Source of the DNA: Pseudomonadota bacterium
GTDB taxonomy: Bacteria > Myxococcota > JACRCW01 > JAFGSX01
Assembly: GCA_043821645.1 (NCBI GenBank)
Contig: JBDRCO010000117.1
Coordinates: 1-21,727 of the forward strand
Length of the DNA stretch: 21,727 bases
Direction: 5' to 3'
This document shows positions 1,997 through 21,152 of the stretch, in pieces. Under the pieces are notes generated by a model. That model was given only the letters and a program-made list of their open reading frames with translations, was not told the origin of the DNA and searched no databases. Within the stretch, counting starts at the first letter, position 1. Each line of letters opens with the position of its first letter. A program made the translations under genes and the position numbers.

Positions 1997-3256
1997 TCAA
2001 ACCATGTGGACGGGCACGGCCACGGTCCGCTCGTCGACGAGGAACAGCTCGTCGCCGCCGTGCACGACAATCGCAGCAGCCACCCGAAGTCCTGGATAGG
2101 TGTCGATAAAACTCCGAATGCCGCTCAGATCTCGAGTCGAGGGACGGGAGCTGAGCTTGATCTCGACCGGGAAGTAGACTCCATCGCGCTCCAGCAGCAG
2201 GTCCACCTCGGCACCAGCCGAGGTTCGCCAGTGCCAGCACACAGGCTTGACCGCGAGCGCCGCTGCCTGCTTCAGCAGCTCGAGAACCACGTGGGATTCA
2301 AACAGGTTGCCTGTCCGCGGATGGTCCTGCACAGCCCTGGGCGACGAGATGGAGAGCAGATGGCAGCAGAGCCCCGAGTCCACCAAATGGACTTTTGGGC
2401 GACCCGAGATGCGCTTGAGCGTGTTCCCCGAAAAGGCATCCAGAGTCACGACCATGTATGAGCCAATCAGCGTCTGCAGCCACTGCGCTGCGGTCCGTGG
2501 CGTTACGCCAATCTCGCGACCAAGCTGCGAGGCGTTGATCTCCTGCGCGGTGAGCGCAGCAAGAAGACGGAAGAACCGCGAGAACTGATGCGGATCATTG
2601 AAATCGCGCAGCGTGCGAACGTCGCGCTCGATGTACGTGCGAATGTAAGAATCGAACCACGCCGGCGTCTCGTCGGTCCTGAACGCCTGCAAGCCAGGAA
2701 AGCCGCCACGAAACAGCCGCTCGTACAGGACTGTGGTCCCGCCAGAGCCGCTTGTGCGCGCAAGCCGCTTCAGGAGACCACGGACGTCGCGAACGGGCTG
2801 CGGCACGAACAGCGCCCGCACGAGCCCACCCTGCGTCGCAGCGGCGAGCTCGAGTTGGGACATTGGCAAGAGATCGACAAGCAAGGCTCGACCAGCCAGG
2901 CTCTCCTGGGCGCGACCCAGAACCTGAAACTGCTGCGACCCGGTCAAGAAGTACTGCCCTTTGCGACCCGGCTTCCTGTCCACCACTCGCTTGAGCACGG
3001 GCAGAAGCTCCGGCGCGTGCTGGATCTCGTCGAGAATCAACGGTGGCGAATTGTGCTGAAGGAACAGCTCGGGATCGCGCCGGGCATTACCCACGTCGGA
3101 GACGGGATCGAACACGAATGTTGCCGCACGAGCGCCAAACAGGTGCGCGAGCAGTGTCGACTTTCCAGATTGACGCGCGCCAGCCAGCACCACGACGGGA
3201 AAGCGCCTTGCTAGCGTCTTAAGCCTCTGTTCGACGTGCCGATCTCGGTACTTCAT
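1997..3256 (-). CDS. AAA+ ATPase, AAA_14 + DUF4143 family (C-terminal PD-(D/E)xK-like domain)
   Basis: Walker A GARQSGKST, Walker B LILDEIQ, LTGS, ESLAGR, GGFP, YIERDV, GNLFES, C-terminal EVDLL...PVEIK. Confidence 0.93.
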   Translation of the reverse strand: MKYRDRHVEQRLKTLARRFPVVVLAGARQSGKSTLLAHLFGARAATFVFDPVSDVGNARRDPELFLQHNSPPLILDEIQHAPELLPVLKRVVDRKPGRKGQYFLTGSQQFQVLGRAQESLAGRALLVDLLPMSQLELAAATQGGLVRALFVPQPVRDVRGLLKRLARTSGSGGTTVLYERLFRGGFPGLQAFRTDETPAWFDSYIRTYIERDVRTLRDFNDPHQFSRFFRLLAALTAQEINASQLGREIGVTPRTAAQWLQTLIGSYMVVTLDAFSGNTLKRISGRPKVHLVDSGLCCHLLSISSPRAVQDHPRTGNLFESHVVLELLKQAAALAVKPVCWHWRTSAGAEVDLLLERDGVYFPVEIKLSSRPSTRDLSGIRSFIDTYPGLRVAAAIVVHGGDELFLVDERTVAVPVHMV

Positions 3257-3939: not shown

Positions 3940-4174
3940 AATACAGGATACCAGGGCACTGGGCGCCCTTCTGCGCGCCTCACGCAAGCAACGTGGCGTG
4001 ACCCAGGCCTCGGTGGCTGGCCTCAGCGGTGTTGGCATTCGCTTCCTGTCGGAGCTGGAGCGCGGCAAGGACACGGCGGAGCTTGGAAAGGCCCTGAAGG
4101 TCCTGCAGAGGCTTGGTCTGGAGCTGTGGGTCGTTCCCAGAGGACACAGGCCAGGAGACGACCTTGGCGGCTGA
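3920..4174 (+). CDS. hipB: HipB-like XRE/HTH antitoxin
   Basis: LGALLRASRKQRGVTQASVAGLSGVGIRFLSELERGKDTAELGKALKVL is an HTH_3 pattern. Overlaps the start of hipA. Confidence 0.9.
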   Translation: MNAPYGKIQDTRALGALLRASRKQRGVTQASVAGLSGVGIRFLSELERGKDTAELGKALKVLQRLGLELWVVPRGHRPGDDLGG

Positions 4175-5426
4175 GAGGCTGCTGGTCTTCTACCAGCGCG
4201 AGCTCGTGGGTCAGCTCGACCGCCTCGACGACGGCAGCCTGGAGTTCTGCTACGCGCCCTCCTGGCTGGGCTCGCCTGGACGCTTCGCCGTCTCGCTGAG
4301 CCTGCCGATCACTGGCGAGGCCTACGCGGGCGCCGTCGTCGCCTCCTTCTTCGGCAACCTCCTGCCGGAGGGTGCCGTGCGGACCCTCGTCGCCAGGCGC
4401 CTTGGCCTGTCCGAGGACAATGACTTCGCCCTGCTGCGGGCTCTTGGTGGCGAGTGCGCCGGTGCCCTCACCCTCGTCGTCGACGAGCCTCCTGCAGGAC
4501 CCGGCAGCTACGAGGAGATCAAGCGCAGGGAGATTTTGAAGCTCTGTGCTGACACCGCCGTGGCAGCCACCCTGCTTGGCCAGGGACGCCTGCGACTGTC
4601 CATGGCCGGGGCGCAGGACAAGCTGCCTGTCCTCGTCGAGGATGGGCGCTTCTACCTGCCCCTCGACGGGGCGCCAAGCACCCACCTGCTGAAGTTCTCG
4701 AACCGGGATTTTCCCAACCTCCCGGCCAACGAGTGGTTCACGACGTCACTGGCCCGACGGGTCGGGCTACCGGTGGTCGGGCTGGAGGTGGTGCTCGACG
4801 GGCAGGCCTGCCTGGTGGAGCGGTTCGACAGGGTACGTGGGGTCGACGGCAGCGTGCTCAGGCTGCATCAGGAGGACTTCTGCCAGGCCTTCGGGCTTCC
4901 TCGCCACACCAAGTACGAGCAAGAGGGTGGCCCCTCGTTCGCTCGCTGCTTCGAGCTGGTCACCAGGGAGTCCTCGGACCCCCTGGCGGACAGTGACACG
5001 CTGCTTCGCTGGCAGGTCTTCAATGCGCTCGTGGGAGCCGCTGACGGACACGCCAAGAACCTCGCCCTGCTCTACCCTGCCCTGCCCTCCTCGCCCCGCC
5101 TGGCGCCGTTGTACGACCTCGTGTGCACCCGCGTGTATCCTCGGCTCAGTACCAGGCTCGCCATGCGCGTGGGTTCGGTTGACGACCCCGGCCAGCTCAC
5201 GAGCAAGGACTGGGGCGAGCTGGCGAGGGCCACGGGGGTCAGTGCGCCATTCCTGCAAAAGCTCGTCGTGGGTCTGGCAGATGAGGTCCTGGGGAATGTC
5301 GACGCGGTAGCTGCCGAGCTCGACGCTCAGCTCAAGGCCACGGTCGGGCGGGACTGGCTGAGGCCTGTGGTCCTGAAGAATGCCAGGAGGGTGAGGAAGA
5401 ACTGCCTGCCGCCGAAGAAGGGCTGA
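4164..5426 (+). CDS. hipA: HipA-family toxin kinase (N-terminal Couple_hipA + HipA_C)
   Basis: SLSLP, FGNLLPEG, SMAGAQDK, LVERFDR, LHQEDFCQA, KYE, DGHAKN, LAPLYDL. TTG start at 4164 follows AGGAG. Confidence 0.93.
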   Translation: MAAERLLVFYQRELVGQLDRLDDGSLEFCYAPSWLGSPGRFAVSLSLPITGEAYAGAVVASFFGNLLPEGAVRTLVARRLGLSEDNDFALLRALGGECAGALTLVVDEPPAGPGSYEEIKRREILKLCADTAVAATLLGQGRLRLSMAGAQDKLPVLVEDGRFYLPLDGAPSTHLLKFSNRDFPNLPANEWFTTSLARRVGLPVVGLEVVLDGQACLVERFDRVRGVDGSVLRLHQEDFCQAFGLPRHTKYEQEGGPSFARCFELVTRESSDPLADSDTLLRWQVFNALVGAADGHAKNLALLYPALPSSPRLAPLYDLVCTRVYPRLSTRLAMRVGSVDDPGQLTSKDWGELARATGVSAPFLQKLVVGLADEVLGNVDAVAAELDAQLKATVGRDWLRPVVLKNARRVRKNCLPPKKG

Positions 5427-5442: not shown

Positions 5443-6108
5443 TTGCCCTTGCAGGAAAAGCTGCTGATGACGGTGACCAGGGACAGAAAGAGCCTCGTGC
5501 AGGCAAAGCCTGGCGTCGCCAGGCAGTGGAACGTCGAGCGCAATGGCGACCTGAAGGCCGATGAAGTCACCCCGGGCAGCAAGAAGAAGGTCTGGTGGCG
5601 CTGCTCGAAGGGCCACGAGTGGCAGGCCACGATCATATCCAGGTCAGCGGGCGCGAGCTGCCCCTACTGCCTGGGTCGGCTGGCGGCCGACGACAACTCG
5701 CTCGGTGCCCTCTTCCCGGACCTGGCGGCCGAGTGGGACCACGAGAAGAACCCCGAGCCAGGGCCCAGCCGGGTCAGGCCCGGCAGCCTTCGCCAGGTCT
5801 GGTGGCTGTGCCCGGAGGGGCACTCCTACGAGGCGAGGATTCTTACTCGCAAGAACGGTCACGGCTGCCCGTACTGCGCCGGCCAGAGAGCCGGCTACGG
5901 GCGCAGCCTGGCGGACCAGCACCCTGCCCTGGCCCTTGAGTGGCATCCGACCAGGAATCGGAAGCTCGAGCCTTCCGACGTCACGCCAGGATCCGGGCGC
6001 AAGGTGTGGTGGAGGTGTGCCCGGGGCCATGTGTGGCAGGCGAGCGTGAACAGCCGGTCACATGGGAGCGGGTGCATGCGCTGCTACATGAAGCACGGGG
6101 GCAAGTAG
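5443..6108 (+). CDS. Zinc-ribbon repeat protein (DUF4379-like, three repeats)
   Basis: Three copies of WxxxxN...PGSxxxVWWxCxxGHx[WY]xA...GxxCxxC. Start could be 5443 (TTG) or 5467 (ATG). Confidence 0.85.
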   Translation: MPLQEKLLMTVTRDRKSLVQAKPGVARQWNVERNGDLKADEVTPGSKKKVWWRCSKGHEWQATIISRSAGASCPYCLGRLAADDNSLGALFPDLAAEWDHEKNPEPGPSRVRPGSLRQVWWLCPEGHSYEARILTRKNGHGCPYCAGQRAGYGRSLADQHPALALEWHPTRNRKLEPSDVTPGSGRKVWWRCARGHVWQASVNSRSHGSGCMRCYMKHGGK

Positions 6109-15184: not shown

Positions 15185-16510
15185 ATGGCCTCCATCCGTG
15201 ACCTGCTCTCGTTTCTCGCCGGGCGTGAGCCCGTGGCGTCGCTGGAGATCCAGCATGCCCTGGGGGTGAGCCAGGCCACCGCATCCCGCCTGATCACGCA
15301 AGCTGGCGAGCAGGTGCTGCGACTCGGGAGAGGAAGGACAACGCGCTACGCGGCCGTGCTCGACCTGCACGGTGCCGGGATGGCCGTGCCCCTGTTCTCC
15401 GTCGACAGGAGAGGTGTGGCGACCGAACTGGGAGAGCTGCGCAGGCTGGGAGGTGGGCAGTACCTGCTCGAAGGTCAGGACCTGCCCTCGTGGCTGCTGG
15501 GACATGAGGGTACTGGCCTGTACCCCTCCCTGCCCTACTTTCTCGACGAGCTGAGGCCCAGCGGCTTCGTGGGGCGCTTGAAAGCCAGGGCCCTGTCGGC
15601 CGAGTGGGACTTCCCGCAGGACCCCAGGACCTGGGCCGAGCAGCACGTCGTGCAGTATCTGGTGAGGAGAGGACACGACGAGCCGGGAAACCTGATCCTG
15701 GGTCGGGCGGCCGTCGACGTTGCTCAGCGATCCGATGGCACAGCCGTTACCGACCGAGAGCTGGAGTACCCGCTCCTCGCAGGCAAGGTGCTCGGGGATC
15801 AGCTCGTGGGATCCTCTGCGGCCGGAGAGCAGCCCAAGTTCCTGGTGTGGCTGAAGGACACCGGACATGTGATCGTGAAGTTTTCCCCGGCCGGCAGTGG
15901 CGACGAGGCCAGACGGTGGCGCGATCTGTTGCGCGCCGAGGCGCTGGCACAGCACGCGCTTCAGGTACAAGGCATCCCGGCAGCCACGGCGACCATCCAC
16001 GAGCATGAAGGCCGTGTCTTTCTCGAAAGCCCCCGCTTCGATCGCCAGGGCAAGCGCGGGCGCCTGCCAAGCCTATCCCTTGCCAGCGTCGATGCGGAGT
16101 TCGCCGGGGTCGGTCTGGGCTGGTCGCGCACCGCCGCCGCCATTCACCAGCGCGGCCTTCTCGACGAGGCCTCGCTCGACCAGATCTCGTGGGCCGAGCT
16201 GTTCGGTACGTGGACAGGCAACTCCGACATGCACCTGGGCAACGTGAGCTTGAGACCCGCTGCGGAGGGGTTCACGCTGGCGCCCCTGTACGACATGCTG
16301 CCGATGAGCCTTGCGCCGAATCGCGGCGAATTGCCCTCCCCGAGCTTCACGCCGCCGCTGCGACCGGCACGGCGCTCGGAGCAGTGGGATGCGACCGGAA
16401 AGGCTGCTGAAGGCTACTGGCGGGAGCTCGCCGACGACGCCTCGCTCGACCAGAGCTTGCGACGACAGGCTGAAATGCGGGCAGAAAGAATCTCGCAGCT
16501 ACTGGGCTAG
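15185..16510 (+). CDS. yjjJ: YjjJ-type HipA-family kinase with N-terminal HTH
   Basis: HTH LGVSQATASRLI...GRGRTTRYA; LRPSGFVGR, GSSAAGEQPKF, VIVKFS, RWRDLL, RFDR, GNSDMHLGN, LAPLYDMLPM. Confidence 0.9.
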   Translation: MASIRDLLSFLAGREPVASLEIQHALGVSQATASRLITQAGEQVLRLGRGRTTRYAAVLDLHGAGMAVPLFSVDRRGVATELGELRRLGGGQYLLEGQDLPSWLLGHEGTGLYPSLPYFLDELRPSGFVGRLKARALSAEWDFPQDPRTWAEQHVVQYLVRRGHDEPGNLILGRAAVDVAQRSDGTAVTDRELEYPLLAGKVLGDQLVGSSAAGEQPKFLVWLKDTGHVIVKFSPAGSGDEARRWRDLLRAEALAQHALQVQGIPAATATIHEHEGRVFLESPRFDRQGKRGRLPSLSLASVDAEFAGVGLGWSRTAAAIHQRGLLDEASLDQISWAELFGTWTGNSDMHLGNVSLRPAAEGFTLAPLYDMLPMSLAPNRGELPSPSFTPPLRPARRSEQWDATGKAAEGYWRELADDASLDQSLRRQAEMRAERISQLLG

Positions 16511-17391: not shown

Positions 17392-18009
17392 TCACGGCTT
17401 CTCGAAGTAGGCAATGACCCGCTTGCCGAGGAGCTTGACCTCGATGTGGTTCCAGGTGCCGCCGATGAGGCCGCCGACGACGGGGACGGTTTTTGTGATC
17501 ACCGCCTTCTGGGTGACCTTTAGGCCGAAGTACTTGAGCATGTAGCTCTTGAAGGCCTTGAGGGTCGCCTTGGACAGGTACTTCCTCACCACGGCTCTCG
17601 ACAGGTTCATGCCTCCGCGCATGCCCAGCTCGCGCAGGGCCTGGCTCGCAGCGTCGATGCCGAAGATGGGGATCAGCAGCTCCCAGCAGGCGTCCTCGTC
17701 GTCGAGGAAGTGGGGGTCGTAAATCAGAGCGACCCGCGCCGCGGCCTTGACCTCCGTGCGGAGCACGAAGCCAGCGTCAGCGATGGCGGCCGGGATGGCT
17801 GCGAAGGGGTTGGACGGCAGGCCGGTGAGCACGCCAGCGCCTGTGGCCGTCCAGGCCGCGCGCTTGAGGATCTTCTTCGAGAGCGCCTTGTTGTCGAGGC
17901 CAGGGTAGGCCTCACGAAGCGCGGCGACGTCGGCCTTGATCTCCAGCGCGTCGACGGTCACGGCAAAGTGCAGGGCGCGGGCGACAAGGGACTGGGTCTC
18001 GGTGGTCAT
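17392..18009 (-). CDS. EcsC/DUF697-like protein
   Basis: GAGVLTGLP...AAIADA...ALIYD...KTVPVVGGLIGGTWN is EcsC-like. GGAGG before ATG 18009. Confidence 0.8.
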   Translation of the reverse strand: MTTETQSLVARALHFAVTVDALEIKADVAALREAYPGLDNKALSKKILKRAAWTATGAGVLTGLPSNPFAAIPAAIADAGFVLRTEVKAAARVALIYDPHFLDDEDACWELLIPIFGIDAASQALRELGMRGGMNLSRAVVRKYLSKATLKAFKSYMLKYFGLKVTQKAVITKTVPVVGGLIGGTWNHIEVKLLGKRVIAYFEKP

Positions 18010-18058
18010 GGGGTTCCTCCGCTGGTTCCTGTGGAAGGGACGGAGGGTGGGGGGAGGA

Positions 18059-18087
18059 TCTGACAGCGTGGCGAGCGTGCTGTCAGA
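18059..18087. promoter_or_regulatory. Palindrome between divergent genes, putative regulator site
   Basis: TCTGACAGC-N11-GCTGTCAGA, perfect 9-bp arms. Confidence 0.5.
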
Positions 18088-18139
18088 GATATTTGGCGGC
18101 TGGCGTCCTGGGGATAGCCACCCACCCGAGGAGGACGCC

Positions 18140-18620
18140 ATGACGAGCAGCAAGCGCGAGCAAGCCAAGGGCCTGGTCTACAAGTACACCGTGGCGGCGG
18201 CCGCTACCGGAGCGGTTCCAGTGCCCGCGGCGAGCGGGGCCATCGTCCTCGAGGATGCGGCCATGGTCGCCCACGTGTCCTCGATCTAGCTCGGACATCA
18301 CGCTGTGGAGCGTTATCGAGAACCTGGGAACGATGGCGACCCTCAACATGGCCGGGCGCGCCCTGTTCATCGAGATCGCGCGAACCCTGGGCTGGGGGGT
18401 GGGTGGTCCGCTGCCAGCCATCCTGCTCAGCGGCGCGGGTGCTGCCACGGCCGGCGTGCAGACCTTGATCCTTGGCATGCTGGCCATCGAGATCTGCGAG
18501 AACGGCGGCGAGCCCCTGCCAGCTCACATGGTCGCGCAGCTGGTCGGTCACTGCAGGTCGGCGTACGAGGGGCTATTCTCCGGTAGGGAGTCGGCTACAT
18601 CACCTGCAAACGCTCACTAG
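18140..18620 (+). pseudogene. Frameshifted DUF697-like protein
   Basis: GAGGAGG then ATG 18140: AAAATGAVPVP...MVAHVSSI, stop at 18289. A protein-like continuation (SSDITLWSVIENLG...GAATAGVQTLILG) runs in the +1 frame to 18620. Confidence 0.75.
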
Positions 18621-18635
18621 GTGCTGCGCCACGAG

Positions 18636-20933
18636 CTAGCTTGGCTGTCCCTCGGCAGTCGAGCCCATGAAGGCCTTCAGCTCAGCTAGCATGTCCCCAG
18701 CACTAGTATAGCGATCCGCGGGCCTAGAAGCCGTGGACCGCTCGTAGATCTTTCGCAGAGGCTCGGGGACGCGAGGGAGCTCTCTCTCGATGGGCTCAGG
18801 ATCATTTGTGCGGGGGTGGCGCCCTGCAAGGAGGGCGAAGAGGAGGCGGCCCGCGGAGTAAATGTCAGAGGCCGCACACGGCTCGCCACTGGCCTGCTCA
18901 GGCGCCATGTAGGCATTCGTGCCAACGACCACCCCTGTCCTGGTCAAGCTTGAACCTGCCCCAATGTCCCTCGCGATGCCGAAGTCGATCAGCTTCACGG
19001 TACCGCCGTGGAGGATGATGTTCGCTGGCTTGAGGTCCCGATGGAGGACACCCTCGCCGTGGAGGTACTGCAGGCCCTCGAGGACCTGGATGAGGAGCTT
19101 CGCTGCCTGTTGAGGGTCCATCTTGTGCTCTGCGAAGCTGAGCTCAAGGGATTCACCCGCGATAAGCTCCATCTCAATGAAGGGCACTCCGGCACTGTCC
19201 ATGGCCGCAGTATAGATCTTCACGATGGCTGGGTGGCTGAGCTTGATGAGGATCCTCGCCTCTCGCCGGAAGCGCTCCACAATATCGGGGTTATTCCTCA
19301 GCTCTTGCTTGAGCTTCTTCAGCGCCCTGCGCTCAGAGAGCATGGTGTTCTCGACTTCCCAGACCTCGCCCATGGCACCCTCACCAAGGCGGCCGATGTA
19401 GCGATAGCCGCTATCATCTCCAGGGACCTTGAAGCGACTGTCCAGCTTGCTGAGCTCTTCTTCTCCCAAGCTGAGGTCCTGGCGTGAATGCCACTCCCGA
19501 CCCGACTTCAGGTAGCTATCGAGAGTGACCTTGGAGTCGACATGGGCGGGTGCAAAGAGCTGACCCTCGATGCGCTCCTTGCGGAGAGGGTGGGCATAGT
19601 GAGAAATCCAGGTCTCTCCTTGTGGTACGATCTTTTCTAGCCAGTAGAAGATGGCCACTTCCCTGCTCTCTATCCGCATCAGCGGAGTCAGGTCGAGCAT
19701 TCTCTTGGTGGCCATATCCAGGAGGAGGACATCGCGCTCTGGCCAAGCCTCGCGCCCGTGTAGCGTGACACTCTTCGAGCGCTCCTCCTGGCCGCGACAT
19801 GCAGTCCAGAGGTTGATGCTCCTACCTTGTCCGCCGTATTTACTCCCGATATTGGAGCCCAAGTGGTAGCCACGCAGGAAGGCCGTCTGCTCCATGAGCC
19901 AGGTGAGGGGGCCGTCAAGTTCCAGGAGCCGCGTCCGAGCTTCATCTTCGCCCAAAGCCCAGTCGACATGTGCAAAGACGTTTCGATCCGATCTAATGGC
20001 CTCTGTCATCCTGAGCCAGTCGTCTTCGAGGCAGGTCGATATTTCTTTGAGGAAGGGTCCCCCATTCTCGACGAGGAAGCCCGTCGTTGACTGCACCAAG
20101 TTCAGCAGCTTCCCTGTCCCAGGATTCTCAAGCATCCTGAGCCAGGTCCGAGCTTGCTTGTCTGTTGCGCCCAGTCCCAGTGAATCAGATAGGTTGACCA
20201 GCGCGAGGAAGCGAAAGAGCCCCTCCAGGAACTTGAGCGCATACGGGAACTTGTGCGCTAGCGTCTCGGAGTGTTTGTAGTGTCTGTACAGAACCGAGAT
20301 GGGGAAAGGGAGCTGGAACATGAAAATATGATCGAGGCCCTCCTGCTCACTTGGGCTCACGACTTTCCTATCTCTGGGATACAGATGCCTTGACAGACCC
20401 TCGCCCAAGACACTCTCACCAGCCTCGGGCACCGTAGCGCTGAACCCGGCGAGCGCTCTCCTGGCCGCGTAGTTATCGACCGGTGAGGAGTGCGACCTCA
20501 CGTCGAACCCGAGATCTTGAAGCCTCTCAACCATCTCCCTGTTTGAGGTGCCCAACTCCTTGGCGAGTTGATAGACACGCACTCTGTGGTGAGTCCGGGC
20601 GCTCTCGTGGAAGCCAAGGGATTGAGGACCTGTTAGGGAGTCAGGCTCTACTGAGTCACCAGGTGTGCGGCTGTCCCCTGACGGCTGGTCGGCAGGAGTG
20701 ATACCACCGTCCCGGCGCTTCCGAAGAACCCAGGTCGTCTTCTTGGGGGCGACGCTAGCAGGAGTTGAGGCCTGAGAGCTCGCTTCGGCGAGCGCTGTCC
20801 TTGCGTCCGCCTCGTCAACCGACGATGAGAGTGACCTGACATCAAAGCCGAGCGCTTGGAGCTTCAGCACGATCTCTTGGTTGGACAGCCCGAGCTCTTT
20901 GGCGAGCTGATAGACGCGAATTTTCTCTCCCAC
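18636..20933 (-). CDS. Hanks-type Ser/Thr protein kinase with two IF-2 N-terminal (IF2_N) domains and a central HEPN-like domain
   Basis: Kinase motifs GEGAMG, ALK, RFRREA, HRDLKPAN, DFG, YMAPE, SDIYS. RVYQLAKELG occurs twice. QLPFPI...GTGKLLNL...RNVFAH (19968-19985). GTG start at 20933 after AGGAG. Confidence 0.9.
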   Translation of the reverse strand: MGEKIRVYQLAKELGLSNQEIVLKLQALGFDVRSLSSSVDEADARTALAEASSQASTPASVAPKKTTWVLRKRRDGGITPADQPSGDSRTPGDSVEPDSLTGPQSLGFHESARTHHRVRVYQLAKELGTSNREMVERLQDLGFDVRSHSSPVDNYAARRALAGFSATVPEAGESVLGEGLSRHLYPRDRKVVSPSEQEGLDHIFMFQLPFPISVLYRHYKHSETLAHKFPYALKFLEGLFRFLALVNLSDSLGLGATDKQARTWLRMLENPGTGKLLNLVQSTTGFLVENGGPFLKEISTCLEDDWLRMTEAIRSDRNVFAHVDWALGEDEARTRLLELDGPLTWLMEQTAFLRGYHLGSNIGSKYGGQGRSINLWTACRGQEERSKSVTLHGREAWPERDVLLLDMATKRMLDLTPLMRIESREVAIFYWLEKIVPQGETWISHYAHPLRKERIEGQLFAPAHVDSKVTLDSYLKSGREWHSRQDLSLGEEELSKLDSRFKVPGDDSGYRYIGRLGEGAMGEVWEVENTMLSERRALKKLKQELRNNPDIVERFRREARILIKLSHPAIVKIYTAAMDSAGVPFIEMELIAGESLELSFAEHKMDPQQAAKLLIQVLEGLQYLHGEGVLHRDLKPANIILHGGTVKLIDFGIARDIGAGSSLTRTGVVVGTNAYMAPEQASGEPCAASDIYSAGRLLFALLAGRHPRTNDPEPIERELPRVPEPLRKIYERSTASRPADRYTSAGDMLAELKAFMGSTAEGQPS
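20475..20918 (-). repeat. Two intragenic IF2_N repeats (20814-20918 and 20475-20579)
   Basis: 27/35 aa identical, with many synonymous DNA differences. Confidence 0.9.
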
Positions 20934-21152
20934 AGGCCTCTCCTGCTCCTGAGAGATGCAAGGCGCTACAGTCGTGCAAGCTGGAGGAGGATACCGTGCT
21001 CTCGGACAGCGTGCAGCGGCAAAGAAGAGGGAGTTTTTTTGAGCCTGCAGCTTCAAGCCTCCGGTTTGGTGAGGCGAGCCCGGTTTCAAGCGCCCTTGCG
21101 GCGGCCTAGGTGCCCACGAAGTCGAGGAGTTGACCGCATGTATGGGCCAGGT

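Follow-up and report, generated by a model that had tools for sequence, protein, structure and literature searches.

We analysed a window of 21,727 nucleotides, positions 1 to 21,727 of contig JBDRCO010000117.1 (assembly GCA_043821645.1), from a bacterium that is listed under Pseudomonadota in GenBank and placed in Myxococcota by GTDB. Our subject is one gene on the reverse strand of this window, whose product joins two copies of the N-terminal domain of translation initiation factor IF-2 (IF2_N) to a middle module bearing the motif RNVFAH and to a serine/threonine (Ser/Thr) kinase domain (Table 1). A preliminary description, made from the DNA letters alone, had placed two IF2_N repeats, the RNVFAH module and a full kinase between positions 18636 and 20933, and all of these are present as judged by Pfam and by the translation. 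Its count of 27 identical residues out of 35 between the repeats proved correct on recounting the aligned strings. It had also held that the gene, lacking the IF-2 GTPase, is not infB, in agreement with a Pfam scan that returned no GTPase family at E ≤ 1 (and no family of any kind between residues 165 and 505). The open reading frame (ORF) extends upstream of the start adopted here, being open over 817 residues (18636-21089, reverse strand), and the resulting protein start, (M/V)GEKIRVYQLAKELG, matches the layout of the host IF-2 start, MGDKIRVYQLAKELG. A scan for promoters and terminators around the gene gave nothing useful. No hydrophobic segment was found in the 765-residue protein. We take the gene product to be a cytoplasmic protein with a variable N-terminal position, here occupied by the IF2_N pair, and a conserved core in which a HEPN-like and a beta-rich half stand at a constant distance ahead of the kinase. 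The identical 765-residue protein is recorded as a one-member cluster from a single contig (P0002).

Table 1. Features of the IF2_N-HEPN-kinase gene, in positions of the 21,727-nucleotide window.
Feature	Positions	Strand	Residues	Remarks and basis
Whole gene	18636..20933	-		765 codons plus stop, GTG start at 20933
Shine-Dalgarno-like AGGAGCAGGAGAGG	20937..20950	-		3 bases ahead of the GTG; read from the sequence
IF2_N copy 1, N1 type	20790..20927	-	3-48	Pfam
Linker 1	20589..20783	-	51-115	P/S/T/G-rich by composition; basic patch KKTTWVLRKRRD
IF2_N copy 2	20445..20585	-	117-163	Genome-search match spans 20472-20582
Conserved HEPN-like plus beta module	19431..20354	-	~194-501	Family search, AlphaFold2 model
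Helical, HEPN-like half	19863..20315	-	207-357	
RNVFAH, Rx4H motif	19968..19985	-	317-322	Family alignment
Beta-rich half	19527..19868	-	356-469	Strands at model residues 187-300
Hanks-type Ser/Thr kinase domain	18654..19406	-	510-760	Pfam Pkinase; PADLOC kinase models on 509-760

The Pfam IF2_N model (PF04760) matched two stretches of the protein with an E-value of 1.1e-21 and 76.8 bits against a gathering threshold of 25.3. When the copies were scored singly in a search of the genome, copy 1 gave 46.8 bits and copy 2 gave 38.9 bits. Both searches are above threshold, which identifies the repeats as genuine IF2_N domains rather than as a generic helix-turn-helix. Aligned with each other, the copies are identical at 32 of 47 residues and differ by 18 synonymous and 15 non-synonymous codon changes. 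Copy 1 shares 39 of 49 residues (80%) with the N-terminus of the host's own IF-2, and copy 2 shares 30 of 47 (64%) with N1, the first IF2_N domain of that protein. The corresponding DNA identities to host infB are 72% for copy 1 and 63% for copy 2, and a truncated or duplicated infB was rejected as an identity for the gene on account of these low values and of the missing G domain. Synonymous sites in the repeats are close to saturation (proportion differing, pS, 0.65-0.70), and the ratio of non-synonymous to synonymous change (dN/dS) is 0.13-0.16. Purifying selection thus keeps both copies IF-2-like, as had been suspected from the many silent differences between them.

We searched residues 1-170 against 5.8 billion proteins, restricted to lengths of 420-1339 residues, and recovered 38 other proteins, of which 36 are IF-2 with GTPase domains and two (P0107 and P0118) are not IF-2; a kinase domain is present in none of the 38. 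The host's own IF-2 leads these matches with 58.9 bits, compared with 47.7 for the second best. A tree of 36 N1-type domains over 53 columns places copy 1, copy 2 and the host IF-2 N1 in one clade (support 96/83), with the second IF2_N domain of IF-2 and a further IF2_N copy of the host, described below, far from the repeats of the gene. The IF-2 consensus has a basic RRR patch after N1, where the host IF-2 has RRVRTVLRRRSD, and its counterpart after copy 1 is LRKRRD. The gene resembles bacterial IF-2 in this patch and in its first 49 residues, but has no N2, G or C-terminal domain and carries its N1 duplicated in tandem. The earlier word "borrowed" is therefore apt, since the repeats are of the N1 type and nearest to host infB by identity, search score and tree, and the sequence comparisons point to an N1 head that was captured long ago from the lineage's own IF-2 and then duplicated in tandem.

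The host genome has five IF2_N matches in all: two in infB (contig C116), which stands in the order rimP-nusA-ylxR-like-infB, two in the gene described here, and one in a 276-residue protein on another contig, C42 (locus L005, 1477-2307). In this last protein an N-terminal IF2_N domain (33.7 bits) is followed by what we take to be a PhaR-like DNA-binding region, and a relative, G024, has a similar frame of 298 residues with IF2_N. Exactly two IF2_N matches are the rule among 25 related genomes, being found in 21; of the other four, two have three matches, one has a single match and one lacks any. Extra copies are therefore unusual.

With the middle module (residues 170-505) as query, HMMER was run exhaustively over 1.84 billion representatives of 50%-identity clusters. 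The scan returned 101 proteins at E ≤ 1e-3, the query included and hence 100 others, with 73 at E ≤ 1e-10. The module matches no Pfam, NCBIfam or PADLOC model. Across 56 aligned segments, the motif residues R317, N318 and H322 are conserved in 55, 53 and 53 respectively, and in the beta half G359, G381 and P417 are each present in all 56. AlphaFold2 run on the single sequence of the module gave a mean predicted local distance difference test score (pLDDT) of 34 and was replaced by a run with a 50-row alignment, which reached a pLDDT of 90.6 and a predicted template-modelling score of 0.90. In this model a helical half (model residues 25-186) precedes a beta half (187-300), and RNVFAH lies inside the helix formed by model residues 135-154.

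Searches with the middle domain against structures and named sequences returned weak matches or none. Foldseek found no match to the model at E ≤ 0.001 in the PDB or BFVD, phmmer against PDB sequences gave chance matches only, a profile search there was dominated by kinases, and a word-index search among proteins of near lengths returned only the query itself. In the ESM Atlas the middle domain scored 0.94-0.96 with unnamed clusters and 0.80 with EAD11 and SAM clusters, which serve as leads only, and the beta half had no usable match there; nor did the structure searches yield a convincing known fold for the beta half. A fold search independent of Foldseek did match the helical half, weakly, to several entries of HEPN type. 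Among Pfam families, HEPN_Swt1 gave weak matches in 5 of 50 members (best E 0.0027), HEPN_RiboL-PSP in 2 of 50 and DUF4145 in 1 of 53, all below threshold. We also compared the family alignment with HEPN_Swt1 by hhalign, taking ten true segments from Myxococcota as the reference, and obtained a probability of 64% (E 6.4e-5) over 35 columns only, with RN..AH in register; a shallower family alignment gave 21.6%, and a NusA control 0.26%. Domains of HEPN_Swt1 itself, scoring up to 132 bits, occur in 11 of 201 Myxococcota genomes, in frames of about 1100-1150 residues (loci L016-L023 and L027). On the strength of the motif, the weak profile matches and the weak fold matches we regard the RNVFAH module as HEPN-like, as was first proposed, and as lying outside every curated HEPN family. 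The HEPN-like domain is probably catalytic.

The last domain is a complete kinase, again in line with the earlier claim. Pkinase (PF00069) matched residues 510-713 with E 8.1e-43 and 147.1 bits (cut-off 31.7), and the motifs GEGAMGEV, ALKKL, HRDLKPAN (from residue 631), DFG and APE are all intact in the translation. Only a short tail follows the domain. The kinase domain strongly matches the models of defence Ser/Thr kinases (PD-T4-6, MAD6 of the MADS system, Stk2 and PglW): among PADLOC models PD-T4-6, for which PADLOC sets no curated cut-off, reached E 6.3e-70 over residues 509-756, and mad6 reached 2.9e-55. The matches are, however, limited to residues 506-762, and these models miss the HEPN-beta and IF2_N parts. 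The NCBIfam equivalog models were all below cut-off, at 145.4 against 460 for MAD6, 212.2 against 450 for PknB-PASTA and 71.9 against 990 for PglW. Membership of MAD6 was rejected and that of PD-T4-6 is judged improbable, as the kinase domain alone matches.

Taken as a whole, the family of the middle module shows that a HEPN-beta-kinase arrangement exists and is rare. Setting aside 13 short fragments, the domain scan found Pkinase in 56 of 87 members (44 of 53 and 12 of 34 in its two parts), mostly directly after the module; typically the module spans residues ~10-310, with the kinase immediately behind it. RN...H is present in 79 of the 101 proteins and HRDxKxxN in 54, with both in 50, and the distance from one motif to the other is 313-320 residues in the rows printed. 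In four members (P0007, P0011, P0021 and P0003) a second RN...H lies 517-583 residues past the first; in the three of these that have a kinase the interval is 571-583 residues, which puts the second motif beyond the C-terminal end of the kinase, and these might be HEPN-kinase-HEPN proteins. The flanks of the core vary. On the N-terminal side other members carry UvrD helicase, TPR, REC (receiver), GAF, FHA with GGDEF, or a second kinase, and on the C-terminal side TPR, FGE-sulfatase, cyclase, EcoEI_R_C or DUF4268; weaker members that have no kinase are joined to Methylase_S, NERD with UvrD, AAA_16 or MIT/TPR. The N-terminal position of the family thus looks, from these domain assignments, like a slot for sensor or targeting (input) domains. 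The N-terminal 170 residues of our protein are matched in none of the 100 other members, and the module tree is star-like, with the query alone on a long branch. An architecture search for IF2_N with a kinase, which the preliminary description had suggested, revealed no second case among the 38 IF2_N proteins or the 100 family members, so the IF2_N fusion is unique in the data searched and stands as one sequence. We found no description of a bacterial family with HEPN followed by kinase, or of an IF2_N-kinase fusion, in the literature consulted, of which the supplements, notably that of PMC3710099, could hold one.

The host genome, G000, comprises 7.07 Mb in 140 contigs and is 94.7% complete with 3.95% contamination. 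The guanine-plus-cytosine (GC) content of the gene is 59.4%, at the 0.7th percentile of a genome with a mean of 67.2% (standard deviation 2.3 in windows of 2.3 kb), and that of the whole contig is 62.1%. We read the region as DNA of foreign origin or of a flexible kind, although the contig may instead come from outside this genome bin; the affinity of the repeats to the host IF-2 argues for an origin of the contig in the same lineage. A search with the single protein found the module in none of 60 relatives. A profile search found it in three of a further 400 genomes from the phylum, each time weakly; two of the three proteins join the module to a kinase and the third joins it to FGE-sulfatase. 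Pattern scans for the module gave 60 matches in genome contigs and 69 in metagenome contigs, none of them confirmed.

Within the window the gene appears to stand alone, since 219 bases separate its start from the end of the preceding ORF, and the following ORF converges on it. The neighbourhood has several features of its own. Just downstream, a 258-residue ORF (17392-18168, reverse strand) matches the PADLOC candidates PDC-S30 (E 6.4e-14) and PDC-S29 (E 9.5e-10) and no Pfam or NCBIfam model. Two forward ORFs at 17936-18289 and 18255-18620 overlap in different frames, and their products are rich in small and hydrophobic residues and match no family; by their sequences they resemble the halves of one small gene and could reflect a frameshift or an assembly error. 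Farther away, the reverse-strand ORF at 1997-3256 encodes an ATPase with AAA_14 and DUF4143 that matches the PADLOC candidate PDC-S01 (E 7.8e-110). On the forward strand are two HipA-family kinases, one with Couple_hipA and HipA_C at 4113-5426 and a second at 15185-16510 that passes the cut-off of the NCBIfam YjjJ equivalog (408 against 401), and a 221-residue protein with three DUF4379 treble-clef zinc-finger repeats (5443-6108, E 1e-60). The window also holds a metallophosphoesterase and two FHA proteins, and over its first 2000 bases the GC content drops to about 50%, compared with 67% for the genome, across an ORF with a GGDEF domain that is cut by the window edge.

Association of IF2_N with the ribosome had been taken as established in the preliminary description, and here the literature led us elsewhere. 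The available part of a study of Escherichia coli (PMC12297416) reports that Domain I of IF-2 co-purifies and cross-links with NusA, that AlphaFold3 places IF-2 residues 1-50 and the two following strands on the KH2-AR1 portion of NusA, and that Domain I tracks the nucleoid, which its authors judge incompatible with binding to maturing ribosomes. According to the part available of a 2026 preprint (10.64898/2026.06.26.734871), the 30S subunit is held by N2, and N1, which is not resolved in the structures, only speeds recruitment. Ribosome association is thus not an established property of N1. The NusA of our host has 586 residues, including a C-terminal extension with a helix-hairpin-helix domain, and those of its relatives that bear names come from Myxococcota.

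Putting these parts together, we propose that the gene encodes a HEPN-type ribonuclease (RNase)-kinase effector, in an order reverse to that of RNase L and Ire1, which is tethered by its IF-2 N1 domains to the partner of N1 in IF-2. We hold this proposal tentatively, at a probability of about 0.42. The HEPN-like domain would be a metal-independent endoribonuclease that needs dimerisation, and its control would fall to the adjoining kinase, which in the manner of RNase L and Ire1 would act by binding nucleotide, by autophosphorylation or by dimerising. If E. coli is a guide, the two N1 domains would tether the enzyme most probably to NusA on transcribing RNA polymerase, or possibly to the 30S pre-initiation complex. 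Such tethering would bring the RNase and the kinase to nascent transcripts and to sites of initiation, and there the enzyme could shut down gene expression in stress or infection. The restriction-type fusions of weaker family members, the low GC content, the patchy distribution and the HipA and PADLOC-candidate neighbours lend the locus a flavour of conflict, which we counted in favour of this effector.

The closest parallel to the proposed effector is with RNase L and Ire1 of eukaryotes, which likewise combine a Hanks-type kinase fold and a HEPN-type domain with Rx4-6H in one polypeptide, and whose logic, in which kinase-driven dimerisation switches on the RNase, is the one we propose. In the available part of the survey by Anantharaman et al. 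(2013, PMC3710099), KEN is the HEPN family fused to Ser/Thr/Tyr kinases. In RNase L and Ire1, however, a kinase or pseudokinase comes first and KEN follows, whereas the bacterial protein has the HEPN-like half first and the kinase last, with a beta domain of ~115 residues between them; it has no Pfam KEN match at E ≤ 1, and its input is IF-2 N1 where theirs is ankyrin repeats or a lumenal sensor. Because the order is reversed, we read the pairing as an independent fusion, which would resemble RNase L and Ire1 by logic and not by membership. Another comparison is with the HEPN domains of the Swt1-like and DUF4145 types, which occur in restriction-linked and abortive-infection proteins. The shared points are the register of RNxxAH with HEPN_Swt1, the weak Pfam matches, and the fusion of relatives to UvrD, EcoEI_R_C and Methylase_S, as is described for DUF4145 in the available part of PMC3710099. 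The family departs from those domains in that none of its members passes a Pfam threshold and its helical part has a greater size; its obligatory beta domain and its fixed link to a kinase were described nowhere in the literature consulted.

Several observations weigh against an effector of this kind. The hhalign match to HEPN_Swt1 spans just 35 columns. The architecture was seen once, on a single contig of a metagenome-assembled genome; this contig has 62.1% GC against a genome mean of 67.2%, so that its place in the bin is not certain. The neighbours of the module in the three phylum relatives are unremarkable, for example LpxR and a Mrp/ParA-like ATPase. Moreover, the authors of the E. coli work state, in the part available, that the IF-2 N-terminus and the NusA C-terminus are both unconserved across bacteria (PMC12297416), so that applying the E. 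coli partner to a myxobacterium is an extrapolation. Finally, many family members carry ordinary signalling domains (REC, GAF, cyclase, TPR and FGE-sulfatase), and this leads to the leading alternative, that the protein is an ordinary signalling kinase among the many multidomain Hanks kinases of Myxococcota, with a non-nucleolytic module for regulation or substrate binding and with IF2_N as a general protein-protein adaptor to transcription or translation substrates such as NusA or IF-2. We consider this somewhat unlikely, though it gains from those same fusions and from FHA with GGDEF, from the lack of a conserved operon partner in the three relatives, from the FHA proteins within the same window, from the fusion of IF2_N to a PhaR-like regulator in the same genome and from the fully active appearance of the kinase motifs. 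It is opposed by the near-invariant R, N and H of RNxxxH, as a catalytic HEPN site would predict, by the members that have no kinase and are fused instead to restriction-type modules, and by the atypical composition and distribution of the gene.

The IF2_N copies could alternatively be an integrated decoy, comparable to those of plant nucleotide-binding leucine-rich repeat receptors (NLRs), in which they would act as bait for a factor of a phage or other invader that binds or modifies IF-2 N1 and would thereby switch on the HEPN RNase and the kinase; a decoy for phage factors had also been suggested in the preliminary description. The retention of IF-2-like copies under purifying selection, with synonymous sites near saturation, would fit a bait, but docking accounts for that selection equally well; other points that fit are the nearness of the copies to the host's own IF-2, their tandem pairing, and the low GC content and patchy distribution with candidate defence genes adjoining. 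Phage T7 kinase phosphorylates initiation factors. A factor that targets IF-2 N1, however, was not found and none is known to us, and a singleton offers no co-variation with phages that could be examined, so that we rate a decoy as distinctly improbable. An assembly chimera or a decaying, functionless gene might be suggested by a singleton protein on one contig, yet the frame is open over 765 codons behind a ribosome-binding site, the modest DNA identity of the repeats to host infB (72% and 63%) excludes a mis-joined piece of infB, and the low dN/dS and intact catalytic motifs speak for a maintained gene; we regard an artefact of either kind as very improbable indeed.

The significance of the gene is bounded by its being a single sequence from an uncultured genome, for which we infer the RNase activity, the gating by the kinase and the partner. 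If the decoy explanation were true, with a bait for an invader that hits either translation initiation or the coupling of transcription to translation, plant NLRs with their integrated decoys would have an equivalent in prokaryotes, and IF-2 N1 would stand out as a target of phages. The wider interest of the gene lies also in the middle module. Its family is rare and covered by no model, and in it a HEPN-type RNase motif is firmly coupled to a Ser/Thr kinase, in the reverse of the RNase L and Ire1 order. The pairing would then have been invented independently, and the family would be a candidate for a class of stress or immune effectors in bacteria, with an input slot that is filled here by a domain from the host's own IF-2. 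As the role of N1 is only now emerging, with NusA binding described in E. coli in 2025, a natural re-use of N1 could provide a test of whether the domain is self-sufficient in docking, and would also allow the partners of N1 outside E. coli to be probed.

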